Below are positions 1,968 to 64,000 of a stretch of 64,000 bases of DNA, piece by piece; the first letter of the stretch is position 1; each line of letters opens with the position of its first letter. This stretch comes from a virus (lineage: Duplodnaviria > Caudoviricetes), in the IMG/VR virus record IMGVR_UViG_3300036546_000109, positions 23,182 to 87,181 of that record, one strand, 5' to 3'. Below the pieces are notes generated by a model. It made no database searches. It had not been told where the DNA came from and was given only the letters and a program-made list of their open reading frames with translations. The translations under genes and the position numbers were made by a program.

Positions 1968-2348
1968 CTAGTAATTAATAGAGCCAAGCCTGTCCATGTA
2001 TTTCTTACCTGCTAATTTTGGCTCAAGAACGTAAACTATTTTTGATTTATAAGACCCATCCCTAAAATCATCCTCACTTGGCGGATAATAGGCAAAGTAT
2101 TCCCATTCTCCTATCTTGTTCGCTTTGTACAGCTCATTAACCTTATCATCGTCGATTGGATTGTTGCCTTCTTTTTGCATCTGCCAGTTTACGCGCTCTT
2201 TATAACCTTTTAGTGTTAGTTTTTGCAATTGGGCGCTGTTGAGTGTTTTTGCTAGTGGTTGGAAGTCCTTGACAAACCCATTCCACACCATAATTTCGGG
2301 GTTTCCTTTCACACTCTCTAGCAATGCAATTAATTCATTTTTTCTCAT
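1968..2348 (-). CDS. hypothetical protein
   Basis: Start moved to MRKNEL (GGGGTG RBS). Confidence 0.7.
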   Translation of the reverse strand: MRKNELIALLESVKGNPEIMVWNGFVKDFQPLAKTLNSAQLQKLTLKGYKERVNWQMQKEGNNPIDDDKVNELYKANKIGEWEYFAYYPPSEDDFRDGSYKSKIVYVLEPKLAGKKYMDRLGSINY

Positions 2349-2502
2349 AAACACCCCACGATTTGGAAAGTTTAAAATTTTGTCTGTAATATGATAAATC
2401 ACTAACGTGAACAATGCTCACAGTTTCACTCATGTTCTCATAACCACTATCAAAAATGAATGCTTGACCGTTTTCGATCTTATACCAACGAGATTGCTTC
2501 AT
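2335..2502 (-). CDS. hypothetical protein
   Basis: Packed ORF overlapping both neighbours; start uncertain. Confidence 0.45.
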   Translation of the reverse strand: MKQSRWYKIENGQAFIFDSGYENMSETVSIVHVSDLSYYRQNFKLSKSWGVYEKK

Positions 2503-2686
2503 GTTCTTTGGTTCCAAATTTAATTTCTTGGTAATCATCTGACATATATGACATTTCAGGTAGTTCGTACCTGTAGCACCATGTTCCGCATGGCCACAAG
2601 ATTATGTCTTCGTGGTCTGCTAGATTGCTTGAACAATCAGGGCAAAGTTCCACAGGACTCCAATGCTCGCACATAATCCGCCCCAT
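2480..2686 (-). CDS. Cys-rich hypothetical protein (CEH...CPDC)
   Basis: Start set just after the upstream stop; possible zinc ribbon. Confidence 0.55.
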   Translation of the reverse strand: MGRIMCEHWSPVELCPDCSSNLADHEDIILWPCGTWCYRYELPEMSYMSDDYQEIKFGTKEHEAISLV

Positions 2687-2687
2687 G

Positions 2688-2843
2688 TCAGTACCACACC
2701 TTGCCATCATTCGACCATTGTTTGATGAGTCGAGCACGTTGTTTGCACCAATAGACGCCACCAATCTTATCGTTTCCTGCATCGTATGTATAGAAGATGC
2801 CTTTATTTGCTTTAGCGGCTTTGCAAGCTTCTTGATAGGTCAT
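2688..2843 (-). CDS. small hypothetical protein (MTYQEACKAAK...)
   Basis: GGAG RBS; the upstream ATG overlaps the -10 box so is unlikely to be used. Confidence 0.6.
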   Translation of the reverse strand: MTYQEACKAAKANKGIFYTYDAGNDKIGGVYWCKQRARLIKQWSNDGKVWY

Positions 2844-3427: not shown

Positions 3428-3703
3428 TCAGCCCTCAAAATCTTCGATTTCTGACCCTTCGATGTAACTTACCAGTGTTTTCAGTACTGGTAACACTTTA
3501 TCACGGTTTTCTAGAAGATGTAGGCACATTCTAAATTGATCGTTTCGCGTTACATTGCCGTTCGTTGCTTTCATGGCCTCTAGTAACAACCCATCAAATT
3601 CCTCTCCGATGCAATCCAGGTCATGCTTTTTACAGTCTTTCTCATTTGTGAAAAGTTTACCATCTACAGCTTCAAACATAGATACCAATTTCATCTTCTT
3701 CAC
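3428..3703 (-). CDS. hypothetical protein
   Basis: 91 aa ORF. Confidence 0.65.
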   Translation of the reverse strand: MKKMKLVSMFEAVDGKLFTNEKDCKKHDLDCIGEEFDGLLLEAMKATNGNVTRNDQFRMCLHLLENRDKVLPVLKTLVSYIEGSEIEDFEG

Positions 3704-5774: not shown

Positions 5775-7385
5775 TTAATCGCCACATAAAGCTGATAAGA
5801 TTTTCTCAATGACAGGAACTGTCCAACCATTTCCCAATACCCTATATCGCTGATTATCTGATATTCCCGCAGTGTACCCATCATACAGGCTCAGAGATAA
5901 ACAGGCTTTCCCCGTTTGCATTGGAATGTATCCAGTAATGACACTCTCTGCAAACCAGTAGCAAATTCTCAAAATCTGATCTGTACTCTTCATAGATAAA
6001 CGGGACAATGTGGTGAATGTGGAACTGCTGTCCATCATCATGTTCAAAATGGATTCCGCATCGTTGACATGTAGCATTGTCTCGTTTCCAAACAAATTTA
6101 ATTGCATCTTTCCAAGTGTCTGTTGAGTAAAAAGACTGTCTTTCTGAGGTAACTCCCCCCTTCCAATTTGCGCTATTTTCCCCTCTATTATACAAATAGA
6201 AACACCCTGAACTACAGAAACCTCCCCTGTTCTTTGAAAGAGGCACGGTTGTTTCTGTTCCGCACTGTCTGCACTCAAAAACTGTTCTATTTGTTGGTTG
6301 CGAGGCTTTGTTTGTAGCGGTATCCCCATACCTACACTTTCTGGAGCAGTATATTTTGTTAGCAGAAACTTTTGATGAGTATTGTACCCCACAGCCTTTA
6401 CAAACTCTTGTAGTTCTGTTTCTTCTACATTCAAAACAAGTTTTAGCAACTTGGGATTTTTCTTTACCACACTTACAAAGTTCTTTGCTTGGTCTAAACA
6501 TGTAAAAATTTCTACCTCTTTCTTAATAAATCCAAAACCCTGCGCCCTTTCGCACTCGATCGGTGTAAACTTTCTACGTTCTCCGTTTTCCTTTTCAACT
6601 AGGAAATTATGCTGCCAACTGCTTGTAGTAATACAAGGCATTTTGTCCACTAATCGAGTACCGCCTTTGTTATAACCTCTCGGCCAAGTCCACACCCCTT
6701 TATAATCTTTATCTTCCAAAATGTCTACAATCTTTGGCGAATGTTCCAAATCTTTTATATCTTTTTCGCCGTAAGTTGTTGTTTGCAGGAACGAGGACCA
6801 GTAGTAACGCTCTCGATTTTGAGCCGTAAAAGCCCTTGAATTAATTTTTACCGGCCAAGTCTTAAGATGGTGTGTTATTACGTCTTCAAATTCCGCACGC
6901 ATTTTTACATTCTCGAGTAGAAAATCAACGCTTCCTTGGTAATCCTCAATTTCTTTTTTAATCCTCACGAACTCAAAGAATAGTGCAGATCGAGGGTCAT
7001 TGAAATTCAATTCACTCCCAGCAAAGCTAAAGCCCTGGCAAGGTGAACCTGCCAAAATAAGGTCAACCTTCTGGTAGTAATTCTCGTCCCCCAATCGCCA
7101 TTTACCATTTTCAGACTCAATATAATTTCCACTAATTTTAACTGTCCGAACGTCACCAAGCCGAATGATATCAGGATGATTTTTCTCGCTAATCTTAATT
7201 GCGTTTGGTTCAATTTCTGAGGCAAAATACTTTATATTACTAAATCCAAGATTTTTAAGCGCTTGCAAACCACAGCTTATACCGTCAAATAAGCTAATAA
7301 CTACGATTTCACGGGATAGCAGGTTTTGTTTGTTTGTTTCAAAACAACTAATATTCTCTAAAAATTCACACTCAAATCGACTCAC
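5775..7385 (-). CDS. C5 DNA cytosine methyltransferase with a ~217-codon in-frame insertion between motifs IX and X
   Basis: Motif I SLFDGISCG, IV GSPCQGFS, VI LLENV, VIII QNRERYYW, IX RKFTPIECERAQGF, X QRYRVLGNGWTVPVI. Confidence 0.92.
   Translation of the reverse strand: MSRFECEFLENISCFETNKQNLLSREIVVISLFDGISCGLQALKNLGFSNIKYFASEIEPNAIKISEKNHPDIIRLGDVRTVKISGNYIESENGKWRLGDENYYQKVDLILAGSPCQGFSFAGSELNFNDPRSALFFEFVRIKKEIEDYQGSVDFLLENVKMRAEFEDVITHHLKTWPVKINSRAFTAQNRERYYWSSFLQTTTYGEKDIKDLEHSPKIVDILEDKDYKGVWTWPRGYNKGGTRLVDKMPCITTSSWQHNFLVEKENGERRKFTPIECERAQGFGFIKKEVEIFTCLDQAKNFVSVVKKNPKLLKLVLNVEETELQEFVKAVGYNTHQKFLLTKYTAPESVGMGIPLQTKPRNQQIEQFLSADSAEQKQPCLFQRTGEVSVVQGVSICIIEGKIAQIGRGELPQKDSLFTQQTLGKMQLNLFGNETMLHVNDAESILNMMMDSSSTFTTLSRLSMKSTDQILRICYWFAESVITGYIPMQTGKACLSLSLYDGYTAGISDNQRYRVLGNGWTVPVIEKILSALCGD
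5881..6501 (-). CDS. HNH homing endonuclease nested out of frame in the methyltransferase gene
   Basis: CxxC/CSxxC zinc motifs, GENSANWKGG, RDNATCQRC...HIHHIVP...NLLLVCRECHYWIH; own GAGGT RBS. Confidence 0.9.
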   Translation of the reverse strand: MFRPSKELCKCGKEKSQVAKTCFECRRNRTTRVCKGCGVQYSSKVSANKIYCSRKCRYGDTATNKASQPTNRTVFECRQCGTETTVPLSKNRGGFCSSGCFYLYNRGENSANWKGGVTSERQSFYSTDTWKDAIKFVWKRDNATCQRCGIHFEHDDGQQFHIHHIVPFIYEEYRSDFENLLLVCRECHYWIHSNANGESLFISEPV

Positions 7386-22743: not shown

Positions 22744-23376
22744 ATGACAAAGAAATATAAGTCCAGTTACTACAACTCGGGCGGGGTGTATAAGACACGA
22801 CATTCCCCTCCTAGTAATGCTAAGACAAAGGCTTGTCAGTTGTGGGAAAATATCAAGAACAGGTGTGAGTATTTGCCATATAAAGACCCTGTACGTTTTG
22901 CTAACTATATAGATGTAGATTGTTGTCCAGAGTGGAAAGATTTCCAAAACTTCGCACAGTGGTTTGAAAGCGTTGTTGAAAATGGATATTTTCACGAAGG
23001 TTGGCATTTGGATAAAGATTTGTTGGTCAAGAATAATAAAATCTATTCCCCGGCGACCTGTGTATTTCTTCCAGAGGGAATCAATAAAGCACTCAGCACG
23101 AGGAGTGGGGATCGAGGGAAATTTCCGGCGGGATTGTGTTATGGGAAATTTTCTAAAGCTTTAGGTGAGATGACGTTGCAAGTTACTTTTAGTTGCAAGC
23201 ATCCAGACTTCTATCTAAAAACGGTTGTTCCTATTTCTAGGCTCGAAGAGTGTTTTAAAATGTACAAAGATGCGCGGGAGAGCTACATCCGGTATCTTGC
23301 AGGTGTCCATAAAGAACAACTTGACCCAAGAGCCTACGATGCACTTATGAAATATGAAATAACAATGGAGGACTAG
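22744..23376 (+). CDS. HNH-family homing endonuclease
   Basis: CPEWKDFQNFAQWF...WHLDKDLL...YSPATCVFLP; paralog of 33010..33636. Confidence 0.8.
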   Translation: MTKKYKSSYYNSGGVYKTRHSPPSNAKTKACQLWENIKNRCEYLPYKDPVRFANYIDVDCCPEWKDFQNFAQWFESVVENGYFHEGWHLDKDLLVKNNKIYSPATCVFLPEGINKALSTRSGDRGKFPAGLCYGKFSKALGEMTLQVTFSCKHPDFYLKTVVPISRLEECFKMYKDARESYIRYLAGVHKEQLDPRAYDALMKYEITMED

Positions 23377-44233: not shown

Positions 44234-46431
44234 TATTTACTCCCGTAAGATATATCAACTTCACCAAGCTGGTTAGTCCACCAACCCTCAATCTGAGGAA
44301 GAATCTCCTGATTGAAGATATTCTCCATATTTGTGGGATCAATCACACCATCAATCTTGATTTCAAATGTGTTGGTGATAGTGTTGGATGTGTTGCCCAT
44401 CATACCCATTTGAGCTATAGCTTGTTCTGGCGTATTAGGCACCGAAGGAATGTCCGATTGCCCATTTCCCTCTCCATACAACGCTTGTTGTTTTTTGAAG
44501 TCTAAGAAATCTGATGGGCTTTCCCATTGCCTACCTAGGCCACTGAGATACTCGTCTCTTTGGTGCCAAGGGATGTTTCCTCCAGTACCAAGAGTTCTAC
44601 CGATAGCACCAAGCCCGCCACCAAACAACCTCTCAAGGATGACAGAAGATTCTTCTCTAAAATCATAATCTTGATTGTAGCGAAGTTTGAAGTCTTCTTG
44701 GTTCATTCCCCAATAAGACGCCAGAGCAAGCAATGGACCGCCGCGCATCATCATCAAACCAGCACCGCTGAGCATCCTCATCCAACCAGCACCCGGAGAT
44801 GTTGGTTTACCTTTACCGGGGATTGACTTATCTGGTGTTCCTGGCATATCACCCGGAAAGCCGGATTGCTTTTTCAAGAAGTCATAAAGAAGAGAAGCGC
44901 CTAGCACTTTAGATGCAAGTTTAATTGCTGCGGCTACCGTTAAGAAAGCCATTGCAACGCCCATTATACCTCTATCAAATTCTACGAATTTCTCAAGGAA
45001 TTTGAACAGATCGCCAGTTACACTTTTCTTGCCGCCTCCCATTGCAGCAGAAATATCTTCCAGAAGCATAAACATACCCTGAAAAATAAGACCAAGCCGC
45101 CCCCACTTAGACATAATCAGCAATCCCAAGCCCGCAAACGTTGATGCTGCTGGGTGTATTTCATTCATCGCCTCAGTAAGCCCTTCAACGGCTTTTTTGG
45201 TGTTTTCAAAGTACATACCAAGATCGCCAAGGACGCCTATTGGCATTTCTAATTGCTTGGTTAACCAATTAAAAGCTTTAGCTAATCCTTCGACAACGGG
45301 GGTTAACTTGCTTGCTGCATCACCAACCATTTTAAAGAAGCGGGCAAAGCCTTCATCACCGCCCTTTTCTCCGAAGGTCTTTAAGAGGTCTTCAAACTTC
45401 TTACCCATGAACCCCTGAGCAAACACAGAGGTTTTAAAATACTTCGGAAGCATTGGTTCTGCTTCTTCTTTCAGCCGTGCATACAAGAGGGGGAGGTGTA
45501 CATTAGGGTCTAGCTGACCCATCTCCATCATTTTATTAAGTTTCTTGGTGTCTCCACCAGCAGCAACGTCCGCCATCAAGCGAACAATAGGTGGTAGGTG
45601 TTCAGCCGCTTGTCCACGAAGCTCTTCAGCCATGATTTGCTGTTTGCCGATCATCTGTGTGAATGCCCGGATTGTACCTTTGATCTTCTGGTCATCAAGC
45701 ATCATTACAGAAGAGTATTCCATAAGGCTTTCAAAACCAGTCATCAAGTGAGGCTCAAGTGCAGTACCTTTAGAGCCAGCCAGCATTTGTGCAAAGAACG
45801 GAGTCATGGTAGATGTCTTTTTACCTAGACGATCACCAAGGTTGTTCAGAAACTCGGTATACTGCTTTGTATCAGCTTCATTACCAGCAGAAGCAGAAAG
45901 TGCCATAGCGTTTGCTTGTAGTTCTTGTGACCCCCTATTAAGGGTCATCAAGCCATAAGCCCCGCCAATAAACGGCACACTACCAAACCCATAACGTGCT
46001 AAAGCACCTGCCGTTCCACCACCATACATGAAATTACGACCAGACCTGTCGGCAAGTTGCGGGCGTTCGTGTCTAGTAACTGTGGTGTTAGCTCTGTGCA
46101 AGCTTGATTGATAAGGAACAGCCTCTCTTGCAAAAGAACGTCCAGCACGAAGCATTGCGGCTCGCAGGTTTCTTTCATTTACAGCAAAGCGGCTAACCTC
46201 AAACACCACATCTTTACTTGCTTTATCAAGAGCATTGCCGAGAGTGCGCTTTAAGCTTCTTTCATTAACAAAGAATGAGGAAATACCGAGAGAGAAATTC
46301 TTACTGAAAAGCTTCTCAAATCTCTTTAGTTTAGTCTCTACATGCTTCAGGTAGCGATCAACTTTTCGCAAATCTTGAATGCGAGTGTTAATCCCCACCT
46401 GAGCGTAAAAGGATGAAATCGGTCCAGTCAT
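44233..46431 (-). CDS. tape measure protein
   Basis: 732 aa helical protein; QMIGKQQIMAEELRGQ motif; follows the tail chaperones. Confidence 0.88.
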   Translation of the reverse strand: MTGPISSFYAQVGINTRIQDLRKVDRYLKHVETKLKRFEKLFSKNFSLGISSFFVNERSLKRTLGNALDKASKDVVFEVSRFAVNERNLRAAMLRAGRSFAREAVPYQSSLHRANTTVTRHERPQLADRSGRNFMYGGGTAGALARYGFGSVPFIGGAYGLMTLNRGSQELQANAMALSASAGNEADTKQYTEFLNNLGDRLGKKTSTMTPFFAQMLAGSKGTALEPHLMTGFESLMEYSSVMMLDDQKIKGTIRAFTQMIGKQQIMAEELRGQAAEHLPPIVRLMADVAAGGDTKKLNKMMEMGQLDPNVHLPLLYARLKEEAEPMLPKYFKTSVFAQGFMGKKFEDLLKTFGEKGGDEGFARFFKMVGDAASKLTPVVEGLAKAFNWLTKQLEMPIGVLGDLGMYFENTKKAVEGLTEAMNEIHPAASTFAGLGLLIMSKWGRLGLIFQGMFMLLEDISAAMGGGKKSVTGDLFKFLEKFVEFDRGIMGVAMAFLTVAAAIKLASKVLGASLLYDFLKKQSGFPGDMPGTPDKSIPGKGKPTSPGAGWMRMLSGAGLMMMRGGPLLALASYWGMNQEDFKLRYNQDYDFREESSVILERLFGGGLGAIGRTLGTGGNIPWHQRDEYLSGLGRQWESPSDFLDFKKQQALYGEGNGQSDIPSVPNTPEQAIAQMGMMGNTSNTITNTFEIKIDGVIDPTNMENIFNQEILPQIEGWWTNQLGEVDISYGSK

Positions 46432-58866: not shown

Positions 58867-59170
58867 CTGGTTCTTCAAGATTGGTCGCTACTCAATCCCC
58901 GCAACATTACTTGCAGCTCTTATTTTCATAAGAAGTTGAGACTATATCATCACCCCTCGGGGTGCCTACCGCTTCGTCCTGCTTAGGACTACATTTAGTC
59001 GTTGAGGGTTTCTCTTTTAAGAGACTTCCCTGCTGATTGCCCATTGTTACATCCGATAACTTTTCAAACCGTGGCTTTGACTTTCGTCTCGCAGTGGTAT
59101 ATCGACTTTAGGGGTTTCCAGCATTTCAATAGGTTTTTACTTCACCGTTACCGATGAAGGGGGCAAATCT
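58867..59170 (-). ncRNA. group I self-splicing intron (304 nt, no ORF)
   Basis: P1 GGGGGU/GCCCCC with U-G at the splice site; P AATGCTGGAAA, Q AATCAGCAGG, R TCAACGACTA, S GATATAGTC; terminal G; splicing restores GGQAGGGKS. Confidence 0.92.
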
Positions 59171-59332
59171 ACCCCCGCCTGCTTGTCCACCATAGAAGAT
59201 AATATCTACCTCCTCCCCTTCATCAGTGGCATACTTGCTACGCTTACCCGTCCCGTCTCTTAGTGTGAGAAACAACTCTTGGGGTTTACTGCAAGGGGAT
59301 ATTACTGTCTTATTACTCTTTGTTCCAGCCAT
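59171..59332 (-). CDS. terL: terminase large subunit, exon 1 (54 codons)
   Basis: PQELF...[11 protein letters not shown]; spliced product is 532 aa. Confidence 0.9.
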
Positions 59333-60176
59333 AATATTTCAGTTCAGCCTCCTCACGAGCTTTAACAGCATCGTCAAAATTAGCAAACATTCCCAATCGG
59401 ATATGTTCGTTATTGACATGGATTTCGGCAGACCACTTTCCTTGTTGAGTATAGAAACTCACTCCTGATTTACCGGAAGTGTTGTTTGGATCAAGCCGTT
59501 TGTTGTAACCTTGGACACTATTCGTTGCCCATCGGCAATTTTCTTTAGAGTAGTCACCGTTATAATCTATTCGATCAAGACTCATACCGTCCGGTGCCGG
59601 ACCCATATCTTCGTAGAAATTTTCAAACGAACCACCAGCTTTAGGATTCCAGCGGTCACAAACTTTAATACCTCTACCACCGTAGTTTTCATAACCCAAT
59701 TGCTGAGGGCAATTGCAACGGCGAAGCATACCTTCATGGATTTGATAAGTTCTGGTATTTGATAAGCCGTGTGTCTTCCGACTTTCCTCGCCAACGCAAC
59801 CACAGGAAGTGGTATTTCCCGATTTAAGATTATTCGTTCTAACTAAAGTCAGATTAGGATTTCCACAAGAGCATTTACACCAAACTTGTCGAACTGTGCC
59901 GGAGTCGTATTTGACCTTTGGTCCTTCTGAGATAATGGTAAGTAGGCCAAAACTATTGCCCGGAAGGTAATCAGCAGATTTCATCCCACAACCGCAAGTG
60001 ATCTTTTTCTTGCCTGTGACTTGTTTGTGTTCTAGAATAATTGTCCCACCACAATCACAAACGGCGTTCCACTGTGCTGTCAGTGCTGTGTCAGTCTCTG
60101 TGGGATTATTTCTGCCTAGAATTGTGAGAAACCCTATCTTCTCGTTGGTGTAATCTTTTAATTTGTACTTTCTCAT
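59313..60176 (-). CDS. HNH homing endonuclease with AP2 domain
   Basis: Repeated GLLTI...C.C.CG units, [34 protein letters not shown]2 tail. Confidence 0.9.
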
Positions 60177-60321: not shown

Positions 60322-60405
60322 TGGTGGATGAGGTTCGACTTGCACGAACATTGCTTTCGCGGCGGATTTACAGTCCGCTGGGGTTACTAATTTTCCTACT
60401 CATCC
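60322..60405 (-). tRNA. tRNA-Tyr (GTA)
   Basis: GGATGAG/CTCATCC acceptor stem, CTGTAAA anticodon loop, long variable arm, encoded CCA. Confidence 0.9.
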
Positions 60406-60984: not shown

Positions 60985-61212
60985 GGTTGAGTGATACGCT
61001 CCTCCTTTAGAAACGTATTAGTCAAACTTAAAGAAATAGGAGCAGCCTGCTTGGAACGAGGGCTGCAAGCTCGTCGGAGGAGGAGCATCTTTCGATGCCA
61101 TGCCAAGCTCATGTGAATTCCCACTGGAATGCAACCGTCAGGAAAAGGAACGGGCACTCTTTGTGGGGAGGAGAAGCAACCAAATGAGAATTCCCTTGCG
61201 GGAAAGGTTGCT
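60985..61212 (-). ncRNA. candidate structured RNA rich in CUCCU motifs
   Basis: ORF-poor region with several hairpins, including GCAA and GAAA tetraloops on the minus strand. Confidence 0.45.
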
Positions 61213-61852
61213 AGGAGATGTCTTTGTACGGGTTTATTTCGCAGGTATAGCCTTTCCAATAGTCATACTCATCAGCTTCAACCACTCCATTGTGTTCAAG
61301 CTTGATTTTGTTACCAATCTGAATAACAAGCGCACGTTCGCTGTTTCCATACTGCTTTACAAGATAGAACATATAGCGAGGAATCCATTTACCGGATTTC
61401 TTGGTAGGAGTGGCTTTCAAGAATTGCCACCCCGTATTCACTAAATCATCACGGACATAATCTTGACCAGCAAGCTTGGTGAACGTATAGTCTCGTACAT
61501 CACAGCCAATTACAAAGCGCTTGAAGTAGTTGAATGGGTTGCGTACTGCACTCCACCAAAACATATTAAATGGCTTAGAGCTATCTGCACCAAAGCTATT
61601 AGCGTCCCACCAACCTCTGTGGTCGCCTCTAAGGCCATCTTCGATGTTCTGCCAAGGCTTCAACCAATTAGGTAAATCTTCGTACACCCAATTTCTGTGA
61701 GTGTTGAAAGTAGTGAAGGGTTTTTCTGTACTAGAATCTTTCTTTCTGAATATCAAACCCAGAGGGACGACAATCAATCCGAGGACAATCCCTGCGAGCT
61801 GCATCAGAAAGAAGAAAAGCCACGTAATAGTGGCTGTTAGAATATCTTTCAT
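61211..61852 (-). CDS. membrane-associated conserved phage protein
   Basis: N-terminal transmembrane segment; Trp-rich LPNWLKPW..EDG...WSAVRNPFN. Confidence 0.75.
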   Translation of the reverse strand: MKDILTATITWLFFFLMQLAGIVLGLIVVPLGLIFRKKDSSTEKPFTTFNTHRNWVYEDLPNWLKPWQNIEDGLRGDHRGWWDANSFGADSSKPFNMFWWSAVRNPFNYFKRFVIGCDVRDYTFTKLAGQDYVRDDLVNTGWQFLKATPTKKSGKWIPRYMFYLVKQYGNSERALVIQIGNKIKLEHNGVVEADEYDYWKGYTCEINPYKDIS

Positions 61853-61859
61853 TTAATCC

Positions 61860-62470
61860 TCCAAAAGAATAAGCGAATGTATAGCCACCAGCAACCCTAT
61901 GCCTACATTCCGAGCCGTCATACTACAGCCCCTCAACCATAACGTAGCGGACATGGTAGATGTGCGCCTTTAACACGTCGCACAATGGCGCGCTTAAATA
62001 TTTGCCACCTTTCGCTAAACGGTGAAATTAGTATGAGTTGGCAACTCAGGTTCATGACGGGATTCACAACCCTACACGTCTTTCCGTAGTGTCTTTATAC
62101 AAGCCATCGGGTCTTTCGGGGTTACTGGTTTGTGTGCTCTACTATAAACCCTTTTTCGAGAAACTAAACACACCTAACAGCGTTACTGACTTGCATATAA
62201 ATCGGACTCTCTTAAAGCTAAGCTTCGTATTCCACTCTAGGTTGGAACCTCGTGAGAGGCGGCGGGATGCTTTCTTCCGGTTGCATTACCTCTTTTATTT
62301 CGTAGCGCCATAGGGACTCGAAAGTCTTCTACGTCCTAGCTGCATAGGCTGGTCTACTCGGCAGCGTCATAGATTGCTTGGCATGAAAGCACTTTACCAA
62401 CCTATGATCCGAATTTCGATAACGAGAAATCAAATCGGCTTGTTTCCAACCAAGCTTAGGAATCTTTTAT
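61860..62470 (-). ncRNA. candidate large (~600 nt) structured non-coding RNA
   Basis: Longest gap without a credible ORF in the late arm; dense hairpins, UUCG/GNRA loops and long-range complementarity. Confidence 0.55.
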
Positions 62471-62497
62471 TTATTCAGGAGTGTGTTTCGTCAGAAA

Positions 62498-62878
62498 TCA
62501 CTTCTTCCCATCAACAACAGTGAAGCTCAGAATAGCTGCGCCTTCTTCTTCTTCATCGTCATCTTGTGGTGCTTCACCTGTTGGGGTGTCAGGTTTGTAG
62601 CATTCGTTAGTAAGCTCAATTGCTTTATCAATAACAAGCTTAGCTGCTTGCAACTGAACTGTAGCACTTACTCCGCCCTTCTCAAGGTCAGCGTCTAGAA
62701 TTGCTTCAGCTTTAGCAAGAGCTTTAGCTACAATCGGATTTAGTTTATTAAGCACCTCTGCCAATTTTTTCTGGCGTGGTGTACGGCTAGATTTGGTTCC
62801 GGGTTTTCTCCCACCTTTCGCTGCTCCGGTTCTTCCCAACTTATCCGGGACATCTCTAGAGTTTACTTCATTAGTCAT
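62498..62878 (-). CDS. probable terminase small subunit
   Basis: Basic GGRKPG N-terminus, helical body, position upstream of terL. Confidence 0.55.
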   Translation of the reverse strand: MTNEVNSRDVPDKLGRTGAAKGGRKPGTKSSRTPRQKKLAEVLNKLNPIVAKALAKAEAILDADLEKGGVSATVQLQAAKLVIDKAIELTNECYKPDTPTGEAPQDDDEEEEGAAILSFTVVDGKK

Positions 62879-63385
62879 TACAAATCCTTATAATCTTGAT
62901 TAGCTACTTTATATATCATTCTAGCTGTAAAATTTGTTTTGTTGAGAATTTCTTTTCTGGAAAACCCGTCCAAGAGCATTTGTTCAATCACCAACTTACC
63001 CTTTCTTGTAAGGCGATTATGGAACATATCAACATCTAAATCTCGCCAATCGTAAGGAGGAATTTTGGTGTAACAAGAATATGCTGTTCCACATATCGTC
63101 CGTTCTATAGCTCGACGTGCTACACCGTATTCTTCTGCAAGCTCTTTGCTTAGTATTTTACCCGTCTTAAATCTTTCCCTGATTTCATAGACTTGATCTT
63201 CTGTAAGCTTAGCCATCAAATTATCAGAACCATCTTGCTCAATAAGCCTTGTATGGCCATCTACAAGCATGTCCAACCAATTATCACGATCTGTTCCCGG
63301 TTCAAGATGTAGTGGGTTACAACACAGCTTTTCGTGACAACGGTGTCGAATCAGAAGACCATCTGGAATTGGACCTATAAATGCC
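62878..63385 (-). pseudogene. HNH endonuclease, 5'-truncated by IS insertion
   Basis: AFIGPIPDGLLIRHRCHEKLCCNPLHLEPGT..DN followed by HTH; the ORF-track N-terminus is IS sequence. Confidence 0.75.
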
Positions 63386-64000
63386 GGGTATTCGTAAAAG
63401 TGGGTTGGAACGGGGGTCAAAGCTCCCCCGCCTCGATCATGTGGATGAGTGTTGAAATGTCCGCGCCATAGTTCTTCTCCCATTTCTCATGCTTGTGTGG
63501 GTCGTAGGCTTCGGGCGGACGCATCGAGCGCACTTTCTCCATCACCGGCAACCCGTAGCCGATGGCATCGTCCGGCAGTCCATATCCCATTTCGACCGGC
63601 TCTGCCTCGCGCTTGCGCTCGAACCGTGGTCGCTTCTGCTTGTTGCTGTGGATGCCCACGCGCTTGCCGTGCATGGGCAAGTCCTTGAACACCTGCTCGC
63701 GGGTTCCCCACGAAGTCAGTCGGTCGGACTGGCAGTGCGGGCAGACAGCGGTCACGTCCACCGGCTCGGCGGTGACGTGGTAATCGTGGTCGGTTTCCTC
63801 AACCCGCAGCACGCTGTACTGCGGGAGGTTCAGGATATTAGCGGGCATCAACCACGCCTCCATAGCCATTTAGATGGCCGTCGTAGTACCCCTGTTCGAC
63901 CTTGTGAGCATCTTTGGGGAGATCAACAACTGCGTGCTTGGGAACCAAAACAGTCTCGCCACAATTGACGTAGCGCCGACCGGGCAGCATGACGCCGCCC
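63386..64000 (-). mobile_element. ISL3-family element derivative (continues beyond the window)
   Basis: Abrupt GC rise; end sequence GGGTATTCGTAAAAGTGGGTTG; truncated ISL3 transposase. Confidence 0.75.
63417..63869 (-). pseudogene. tnpA: ISL3 transposase with the catalytic core deleted
   Basis: zf-ISL3 N-terminus (CPHC...DLPMHGKRVGI) fused directly to a C-terminal tail; only 150 aa. Confidence 0.75.

Follow-up and report, generated by a model that had tools for sequence, protein, structure and literature searches.

The window analysed in this work is a stretch of 64,000 nucleotides (nt) that comprises the final 64 kb (positions 23,182 to 87,181) of an 87,181-bp IMG/VR virus record (IMGVR_UViG_3300036546_000109; Duplodnaviria, Caudoviricetes) with direct terminal repeats. 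Within it, a non-coding gap of 645 nt (61853-62497) separates two minus-strand genes, viz. an open reading frame (ORF) of 126 amino acids (aa) without a family match (62498-62878) and the gene for a 213-aa protein (61211-61852; DUF7338/phrog_2143), which has its own Shine-Dalgarno (SD) sequence and ATG; the two genes are distinct, and each has a start and a stop of its own. Read along the minus strand, the gap runs head-to-tail from module A through B, C1, and C2 to D. C1 and C2 are genuine structured RNAs belonging to two unnamed families, and the locus as a whole is a cassette slot that in sister phages is filled by transfer RNAs (tRNAs) or by other small non-coding modules.

An earlier, sequence-only reading of this region had described a single, densely structured non-coding RNA of about 600 nt on the minus strand, without a credible ORF, lying near tRNA genes and perhaps belonging to the GOLLD or ROOL families or to a new class. 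The lack of coding content is borne out by our analyses: the ORFs within the gap (91, 49, 44, 34, and 34 aa) have zero Pfam or PHROG matches, and the 91-aa ORF spans an indel boundary that is absent from relatives. The assignment to the minus strand also agrees with the position of the gap between two minus-strand genes and with the structured RNAs that it contains. The short complementary words that had been listed are present in the DNA (viz. GACT..AGTC at 62315-62326, GAATGTA/TACATTC at 61875-61910, and CCGTCAT/ATGACGG at 61915-61921/62054-62060), but the helices that receive comparative support below (P1-P4 and the pseudoknot of C1, and stems Sa and Sb of C2) were missing from that list.

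A mosaic slot for small non-coding modules

Evidence for the modular nature of the gap comes from a comparison with related loci that encode the 213-aa protein at 94-96% identity. These relatives keep the flanks and module D yet lack B and/or C (where C denotes C1, C2, and a short 3' tail). In L006, the 126-aa gene abuts a D module of ~115 nt that is followed by the gene for the 213-aa protein; in L008, a short piece of A (A') is joined to D; and in L057, the 126-aa gene is followed by a B module that is 97% identical to that of the window and then by D. Transfer RNAs have been inserted directly after D in two further relatives, viz. tRNA-Trp in L007 and tRNA-Ser and tRNA-Arg in L009, the latter of which also carries B upstream of D. 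In the alignment, module C (61968-62197) forms a 230-nt insert with respect to the L009-type relatives. Contigs from four RNA libraries could also be placed on the region. One of them fuses position 61967 directly to 62198, another carries 91 other letters in place of B and C, a 206-nt contig spans C1 and part of B, and a 263-nt contig (run X19) covers B only (62215-62414; depth 31). In some runs, contigs are missing from parts of the stretch, from which no conclusion is drawn. Because the relatives and the contigs show the same indel joints, the gap is a cassette slot and not one conserved 600-nt RNA. The single ornate molecule envisaged earlier is also at odds with the solitary occurrence of C1 and of C2, each sharply delimited at ~100 nt, in unrelated genomes. 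The proposed link to tRNAs stands in so far as relatives carry tRNAs at this site and C1 lies inside tRNA arrays elsewhere, but within the window the sole tRNA called by ARAGORN, tRNA-Tyr (60322-60405), is 1.5 kb from the gap.

Known RNA families were searched for with Rfam 15, using a gathering-threshold scan of the whole window and a permissive cmscan (E<=10) of both strands of 61500-62900. The scan of the whole window returned only a group I intron (58917-59180, minus strand; Intron_gpI, 96.6 bits, E 1e-23). In the permissive scan GOLLD (RF01998) and ROOL (RF03087) had no match at E<=10, which disposes of the suggested membership in these families, and within the gap there was likewise no match at this threshold to tRNA, transfer-messenger RNA (tmRNA), RNase P, or group I or group II introns, nor any ARAGORN call. 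The hammerhead, twister, twister-sister, pistol, hatchet, hairpin, and HDV-like (HDV, hepatitis delta virus) ribozymes gave no match at E<=10 either, both for the type-A copy of C1 in the gap and for a type-B copy (L017; the types are described below). The designation of a new class is thus fair for the small motifs, none of which is in Rfam, but not for the whole gap as one RNA. The claim of a structure denser than chance is not borne out: folded as a whole, the gap reaches a minimum free energy that does not surpass that of dinucleotide shuffles (z = +0.54 for the minus and +1.06 for the plus strand), and the same is true of the modules folded singly (z = -0.68, +0.73, +0.58, and -1.31). A literature search on the conserved sequence strings found nothing relevant.

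C1, a pseudoknotted RNA that occurs in two circular permutations

Module C1 (62089-62196, minus strand) is a type-A member of an unnamed family of pseudoknotted phage RNAs of ~100 nt. The fold consists, in order, of the closing helix P1 (62188-62196 with 62097-62105), the helix P2 (62178-62181 with 62124-62127; GCUS/SAGU), an internal loop (UUAGG/CAAAC), the helix P3 (62168-62173 with 62132-62137), an optional hairpin at the P3/P4 junction, and the helix P4 (62158-62160 with 62137-62139), which is capped by an 18-nt loop, GAAnAAGGGUUnAnAGUA. The strand that follows P2 reads AACCCYGAAAGACCC and is joined to the P4 loop by a pseudoknot of 5 base pairs (bp), in which GGGUU (62147-62151) pairs with AACCC (62119-62123). 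About 28 nt of the RNA are invariant, and the family is marked by the invariant blocks GCUS-UUAGG, GAAnAAGGGUUnAnAGUA, and CAAAC-SAGU-AACCC. The covariance model for this family (R1) detects a single copy in the window, which is full-length (model positions 1-108) and scores 108 bits (E 6e-32); every helix is complementary in this copy, which belongs to the family as the model defines it.

The comparative support for this structure is strong. When 15 type-A copies are aligned with Infernal, 90% of the cells are paired, compared with 61.6% in shuffles, and the covariation score of 0.716 (0.214 in shuffles) is reached by none of 500 shuffles, with slid controls giving 0.06-0.13; double changes are seen at 13 of the 18 pairs. 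Among the 78 copies that could be scored, P2 is GCUC/GAGU in 39, GCUG/CAGU in 33, and ACUG/CAGU in 6, with zero exceptions, and 31 distinct strands are present in P3. The pseudoknot also varies in a compensatory manner at four of its five positions (AGGUU:AACCU in nine copies, GGGAU:AUCCU in two, and AGGAU:AUCCU and AGUCU:AGACU in one each); a further variant, GGGGC:GACCC, found in two copies, is compensatory at the fifth position, yet a G-A mismatch arises in it.

Members of the C1 family differ in the order of their strands. In type A, which includes the window copy and those in enterobacterial tRNA arrays, the GCUS-UUAGG block and the 5' strand of P3 lie upstream of the core, and P1 contains both ends of the RNA. 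Type B has this block and strand 60-111 nt downstream of the core, only a loop or small hairpin is left of P1, and in most copies the ends are formed by a closing helix of 6-16 bp at the P3/P4 junction. The P2 and P3 strands of type-B copies pair with their own partners at 8.79 of 9 positions, compared with 5.70 of 9 for non-self partners. Type B accounts for 52 and type A for 26 of the copies from metagenomes. C1 is a genuine structured RNA which occurs in two circular permutations, and the examples of natural circular permutation in small RNAs given by PMC10085705 are confined to the hammerhead and twister ribozymes, 5S rRNA, and introns of group II.

The distribution of C1 is broad, with about 85 distinct copies found, nearly all of them in viral DNA. 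In a blastn comparison with cultured phages, ~85 nt of the insert matched unannotated spots in tRNA arrays, on the tRNA strand, in phages of Klebsiella (KP13-26 and RaK2), Erwinia (Henunavirus), and Pectobacterium (PM2). A type-B query identified C1 in 48 cultured-phage records, with one copy in each and nearly all of them unannotated; Klebsiella phages RaK2 and K64-1 and Proteus phage PM135 are among the phages that carry it. In IMG/VR, 39 loci were found by a pattern scan, and a relaxed pattern yielded 85 metagenome loci. The corresponding search of 185,579 prokaryotic genomes (one per species) produced three hits, all of them contigs of metagenome-assembled genomes. In view of the 48 cultured-phage records and 39 IMG/VR loci against these three contigs, C1 is essentially viral. 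It is thus not the curiosity of a single phage but a sharply conserved, virus-specific fold of many large lytic phages that is currently unannotated.

Type A often fills a slot within a tRNA array, and C1 lies 1-3 nt from tRNAs in T4-like phages, T5-like phages, and Stephanstirmvirinae (Klebsiella phage KP13-26). In the E. coli K-12 phage mogra (a T4-like Mosigvirus), C1 is situated 3 nt after tRNA-Met and 1 nt before tRNA-Arg; it precedes tRNA-Ile by 2 nt in the T5-like Proteus phage PM135 and tRNA-Val by 1 nt in Klebsiella phage KP13-26, while in Erwinia phage pEp_SNUABM_01 it follows tRNA-Gly at a distance of 8 nt and precedes tRNA-Glu by 11 nt. In L026, 3 nt separate the encoded CCA of a tRNA-Thr from the start of the type-B copy that comes after it. 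At ~100 loci, every tRNA or tmRNA near C1 shares its strand, with none on the opposite one. No protein family is shared among the neighbours of 29 C1 loci, and the only RNAs found in 15 C1 neighbourhoods, in which known ribozymes were also looked for and were absent, are tRNAs and tmRNAs. Three C1-bearing phage contigs (L015, 102-1644, minus strand; L140; and L137) have tmRNA genes and arrays of tRNAs on one and the same strand and look like stable-RNA operons. In another contig (L033, ~3500-3570, plus strand), a tRNA-like element that is not called by ARAGORN is found directly 3' of a type-A C1; it has a T-arm with GGUUCGAUUCC and a stem that resembles an acceptor stem.

C2 and the remaining modules

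Module C2 (62004-62093, minus strand) starts 3 nt after P1 of C1 and is a two-domain motif of ~90 nt that represents the second unnamed RNA family. Its first domain is a hairpin (62086-62089 with 62072-62075) in which CUAC and GUAG enclose the loop GGAAAGACGU, which varies only slightly. In the second domain, stem Sa (62063-62067 with 62022-62026; GUGAA/UUCAC) encloses an unpaired core (62052-62060), which reads CCGUCAUGA here and (A)AGCCGUYAUGAG in the family, and the hairpin Sb (62043-62048 with 62034-62039; UGAGUU/AACUCA). The long-range CCGTCAT/ATGACGG pair that the sequence-only reading had proposed is not supported by this arrangement, as CCGUCAU belongs to the conserved unpaired core and C2 and D occur without each other elsewhere. 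A resemblance of GGGUUGUGAAUCCC in C2 to the remnant of a tRNA T-arm was also considered and rejected, since covariation within the family gives Sa and Sb.

The covariance model for C2 (R2) matches the window copy over its full length with 60.2 bits (E 4e-17), which places it within the family, in a divergent subtype shared with Pseudomonas phage vB_PsaM_M1, whose copy, located beside its tRNAs, is the closest. The variable stems of C2 were misaligned by MAFFT, and a hand-set structure with Infernal realignment was used. After realignment, C2 has 94.6% of its cells paired (shuffles, 73.1%) and a covariation score of 0.548, where shuffles score 0.153 and slid controls 0.04-0.08; double changes are present at 10 of 15 pairs. 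A first own-versus-non-self control for Sa discriminated weakly (5.2 vs. 4.4 bp). Covariation among homologs had been named in the earlier reading as one of the checks, and for C2, as for C1, the observed score is reached by 0 of 500 shuffles. The 20-nt 5' core of C2 is identical in 27 IMG/VR contigs, a second pattern added variants, and the similarity between loci ends sharply at the borders of the ~90-100-nt motif. C2 is a genuine structured RNA of a widespread family that is absent from Rfam.

The genomic contexts of C2 are diverse. In lambdoid prophages, it is found in an RNA that matches the pR'-tR' late leader of lambda (the 6S RNA region; 44613-44713) over its first ~100 nt, and it lies there just upstream of a terminator and a tRNA-Arg, whereas lambda itself lacks C2. 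It also occurs in long non-coding stretches near tRNAs and in non-lambdoid phages of 88 kb. Pseudomonas phage vB_PsaM_M1 (L004; 89 kb), a tractable cultured relative of the locus, has a C2 copy scoring 74.7 bits in a non-coding stretch of ~425 nt (2318-2744, minus strand) upstream of tRNA-Pro, tRNA-Asn, and tRNA-Thr. In L060, a phage tmRNA (6247-6662, plus strand; detected by ARAGORN and scoring 44.8 bits in Rfam, where the gathering threshold is 47) contains C2 at 6487-6577, after the tag reading frame, before the 3' tRNA-like domain, and in place of part of the pseudoknot region. This is where PK2-PK4 normally lie, but the C2 model is not a pseudoknot, and the window has no tmRNA. Through C2 as one portable domain, the tRNA slot is connected with the late leader and with tmRNA, three kinds of untranslated phage RNA. 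The predicted tag peptide of the L060 tmRNA is unusually long (23 residues). In L065, an abiF RNA motif (RF03085; 1124-1161, minus strand; 40 bits, gathering threshold 37) is located immediately upstream of a C2 copy (1009-1121).

Module B (62198-62424, minus strand) is a structured RNA candidate of ~230 nt with a closing stem (62407-62412 with 62202-62207) and an H-type pseudoknot formed by GCUGC (62361-62365) with GCAGC (62339-62343) and CCUA (62345-62348) with UAGG (62335-62338). The copy in L057 is 97% and that in L009 81% identical, and in L009 both stems of the pseudoknot show compensatory changes (GCUGC/GCAGC to GUUGG/CCAAC and CCUA/UAGG to CCCG/CGGG), while one internal hairpin has been swapped for a different one; in one RNA-library contig, the CCUC/GAGG hairpin has the loop GUAA instead of UCAC. 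Within a set of three sequences, these compensatory changes are suggestive of a structured RNA. A pattern scan for B found two relatives only. In the relative from run X19, B is bordered by an inverted repeat (TTGATGTGCGCTTT ... AAAGCGCACATCAA), and fold-back joints are present inside B in two other runs; these may be hairpin assembly artefacts or may reflect a real palindromic setting.

Module D (61853-61967, or up to ~61993 with a hairpin shared with L008; minus strand) is a lineage-conserved element of ~115-140 nt with three hairpins, the last of which (GAAUGUAGGC..GCUAUACAUUC) is followed by a U-rich tail, and it ends at the SD sequence and ATG of the 213-aa gene. The segment 61853-61967 is 97-100% identical in four relatives, and a pattern scan recovered these four known relatives only, so that D is confined to this lineage. 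The possibility that B and D form a two-piece tmRNA (with GGGGCUG in D and CCCGCCGCCUC in B) was rejected because three relatives have D but no B and because ARAGORN makes no call. Module A (62425-62497, minus strand) is the 3' trailer of the 126-aa gene, in which a terminator scan identified a terminator-like hairpin (62438-62455; GCUUG/CAAGC, then a U-rich tail). Its first 31 nt are common to L008, and the module is absent from L057.

Interpretation of the cassette slot and alternative explanations

The interpretation that we favour, with a probability of roughly 0.68, is that the locus is a hypervariable slot for small-RNA cassettes, each of them independent and self-closing, which are co-transcribed and are released by the tRNA-processing machinery as small stable RNAs. 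The cassettes would be transcribed together with their neighbours as a single unit and excised by tRNA-maturing enzymes, with RNase P acting at the 5' end of the next tRNA and with 3' trimming, and the freed cassettes would remain as small stable RNAs whose trans-acting target would be a conserved factor of the host or the phage. We infer co-transcription and release by tRNA enzymes because C1 fills a tRNA-sized slot 1-3 nt from tRNAs in unrelated large lytic phages. The shuffling of cassettes is probably aided by free-standing HNH endonuclease genes (phrog_59 and phrog_374; 62878-63483 and 59313-60176, both on the minus strand) that bracket the small-RNA/tRNA slot, and homing-type recombination by these genes could drive cassette turnover. 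Their placement resembles that of segB, which sits in the tRNA cluster of T4.

Release by tRNA-maturing nucleases and action in trans have long been proposed for the species 1 and 2 RNAs of T4, and to our knowledge, the non-tRNA RNAs of phage tRNA clusters, known since T4, are still unexplained. The species 1 and 2 RNAs (rnaC and rnaD; NC_000866) are, like the cassettes described here, small stable non-tRNA RNAs that lie head-to-tail with tRNAs on the same strand, and C1 occupies the equivalent slot in the T4-like phage mogra. The T4 RNAs end in tRNA-like T-arms, in contrast to C1, which has a pseudoknot fold, occurs in two permutations, and has a far wider phage range. The identity of C1 or C2 with rnaC or rnaD was rejected, as neither R1 nor R2 has a match in T4 69000-74000; the T4 RNAs are unrelated to them in sequence and in structure.

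Several observations weigh against the proposal of co-transcribed and processed cassettes. Thermodynamic folding lends it no support. The RNA-library contigs are assemblies that may contain DNA, and they prove neither transcription nor RNA ends. Module A resembles an intrinsic terminator, and the gap itself yielded no sigma-70-like promoter; the phage's own polymerase may be the transcriber of B-D. Module B is known from three sequences and D from a single lineage, and D may be an RNA cassette or, instead of an RNA gene, a leader or promoter. Additionally, type-B copies of C1 are mostly away from tRNAs (a same-strand tRNA is present at 4 of 44 metagenome loci, and within 300 nt at 1), and because of this, tRNA-linked processing is not a general rule for the C1 family.

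A second explanation, which we consider possible but rather unlikely, is that C1 (and perhaps C2) represents a new class of small self-cleaving ribozyme that would cut the polycistronic tRNA/small-RNA transcript at its own boundary and thereby free the tRNAs without, or alongside, the host nucleases. C1 shares its size, junction core, pseudoknot, free-standing intergenic copies, and permutation with the circularly permuted ribozymes (hammerhead types I-III and twister P1/P3/P5; PMC10085705), and the rarity of circular permutation among small RNAs, where it has so far been reported mainly for self-cleaving ribozymes, makes C1 a candidate either for a ribozyme of a new class or for an RNA with a conserved host factor as its binding partner. 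Its length of ~100 nt, pseudoknotted core with ~28 invariant junction nt, lack of a conserved neighbouring protein, and the L026 copy placed 3 nt after a tRNA CCA are also consistent with catalysis, for which the theta (HDV-like) ribozymes located next to phage tRNAs provide a precedent (PMC10879173), although the strand order of the HDV fold differs from that of C1. If C1 were catalytic, it would constitute an unrecognised class of RNA that matures the tRNA/small-RNA transcripts of large lytic phages (among them those of the T4-like, T5-like, and jumbo kinds that infect E. coli, Klebsiella, Proteus, Erwinia, and Rhizobium), with C2 as a second portable device of tRNA slots, lambdoid late leaders, and phage tmRNA. 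However, there is no match to a known ribozyme family in Rfam, the 15 C1 neighbourhoods are devoid of known ribozymes, no cleavage site can be named from the sequence, RNase P alone would be enough to release type-A copies that abut tRNAs, and permutation is equally compatible with any fold whose helix ends are dispensable.

It is improbable that the modules serve as cis-acting signals for untranslated RNA arrays, by means of processive antitermination or of protection from Rho or RNases. In favour of this, long untranslated arrays need protection from Rho, and lambdoid prophages have C2 in their pR'-tR' late leader, where a terminator and tRNA-Arg follow directly. The P2 region of C1 in enterobacterial phages (e.g. 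L001, 2560-2570, minus strand) reads CGCUCUUA, which we take to be the boxA sequence of the lambda nut sites, and the P4 loop GAAAAAGGG presumably recalls boxB. These resemblances are probably a coincidence, since covariation shows that the CGCUCUUA stretch is base-paired within P2, with perfect C/G to G/C covariation, and boxA acts in single-stranded form. C1 is furthermore found within arrays and not at their start. As for C2, it resembles the put RNA of HK022 in being a two-domain RNA of under 100 nt, but it is not a put RNA, because R2 finds nothing in the complete HK022 genome, and antitermination makes little sense for a domain inside tmRNA.

The view that the gap consists of decayed tRNA genes or of ordinary promoter and terminator DNA without RNA function is very improbable overall. 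The tRNAs carried by relatives at this site, the hairpins and U-rich tracts of A and D, and the unremarkable folding energies could be accommodated by it, and for A and D it is possible. For C1 and C2 it is refuted by their scores of 108 and 60 bits against covarying families that have many invariant positions across distant phages, and decayed tRNAs are essentially excluded, neither ARAGORN nor the Rfam tRNA model (E<=10) having detected a tRNA-like signal. Also essentially excluded is a single GOLLD/ROOL-type ornate RNA, or a new relative of these, occupying the whole ~600 nt: GOLLD and ROOL also occur near tRNAs in phages and have a similar total non-coding length, and several modules abut with spacers of 0-3 nt, but neither family is matched at E<=10, the z values of the whole gap are positive, and sister phages with 94-96% identity in the flanking protein lack B, C, or both, as expected of independent cassettes of ~90-230 nt that are gained and lost separately.

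C1 and C2 could become Rfam families, which would improve the annotation of phage genomes, and both are testable in model systems. Outside the cassette slot, the G+C content rises from ~42% to 60-63% across the last ~600 nt of the genome (window 63400-64000), and this high-G+C end may be inserted foreign DNA, a portion of the terminal repeat, or the product of a chimeric assembly. A 150-aa ORF in this region (63417-63869, minus strand), which shares sequence with the start of the HNH gene at 62878-63483 by overlap, is weakly matched by a transposase PHROG (phrog_5749, E 1.6e-8).

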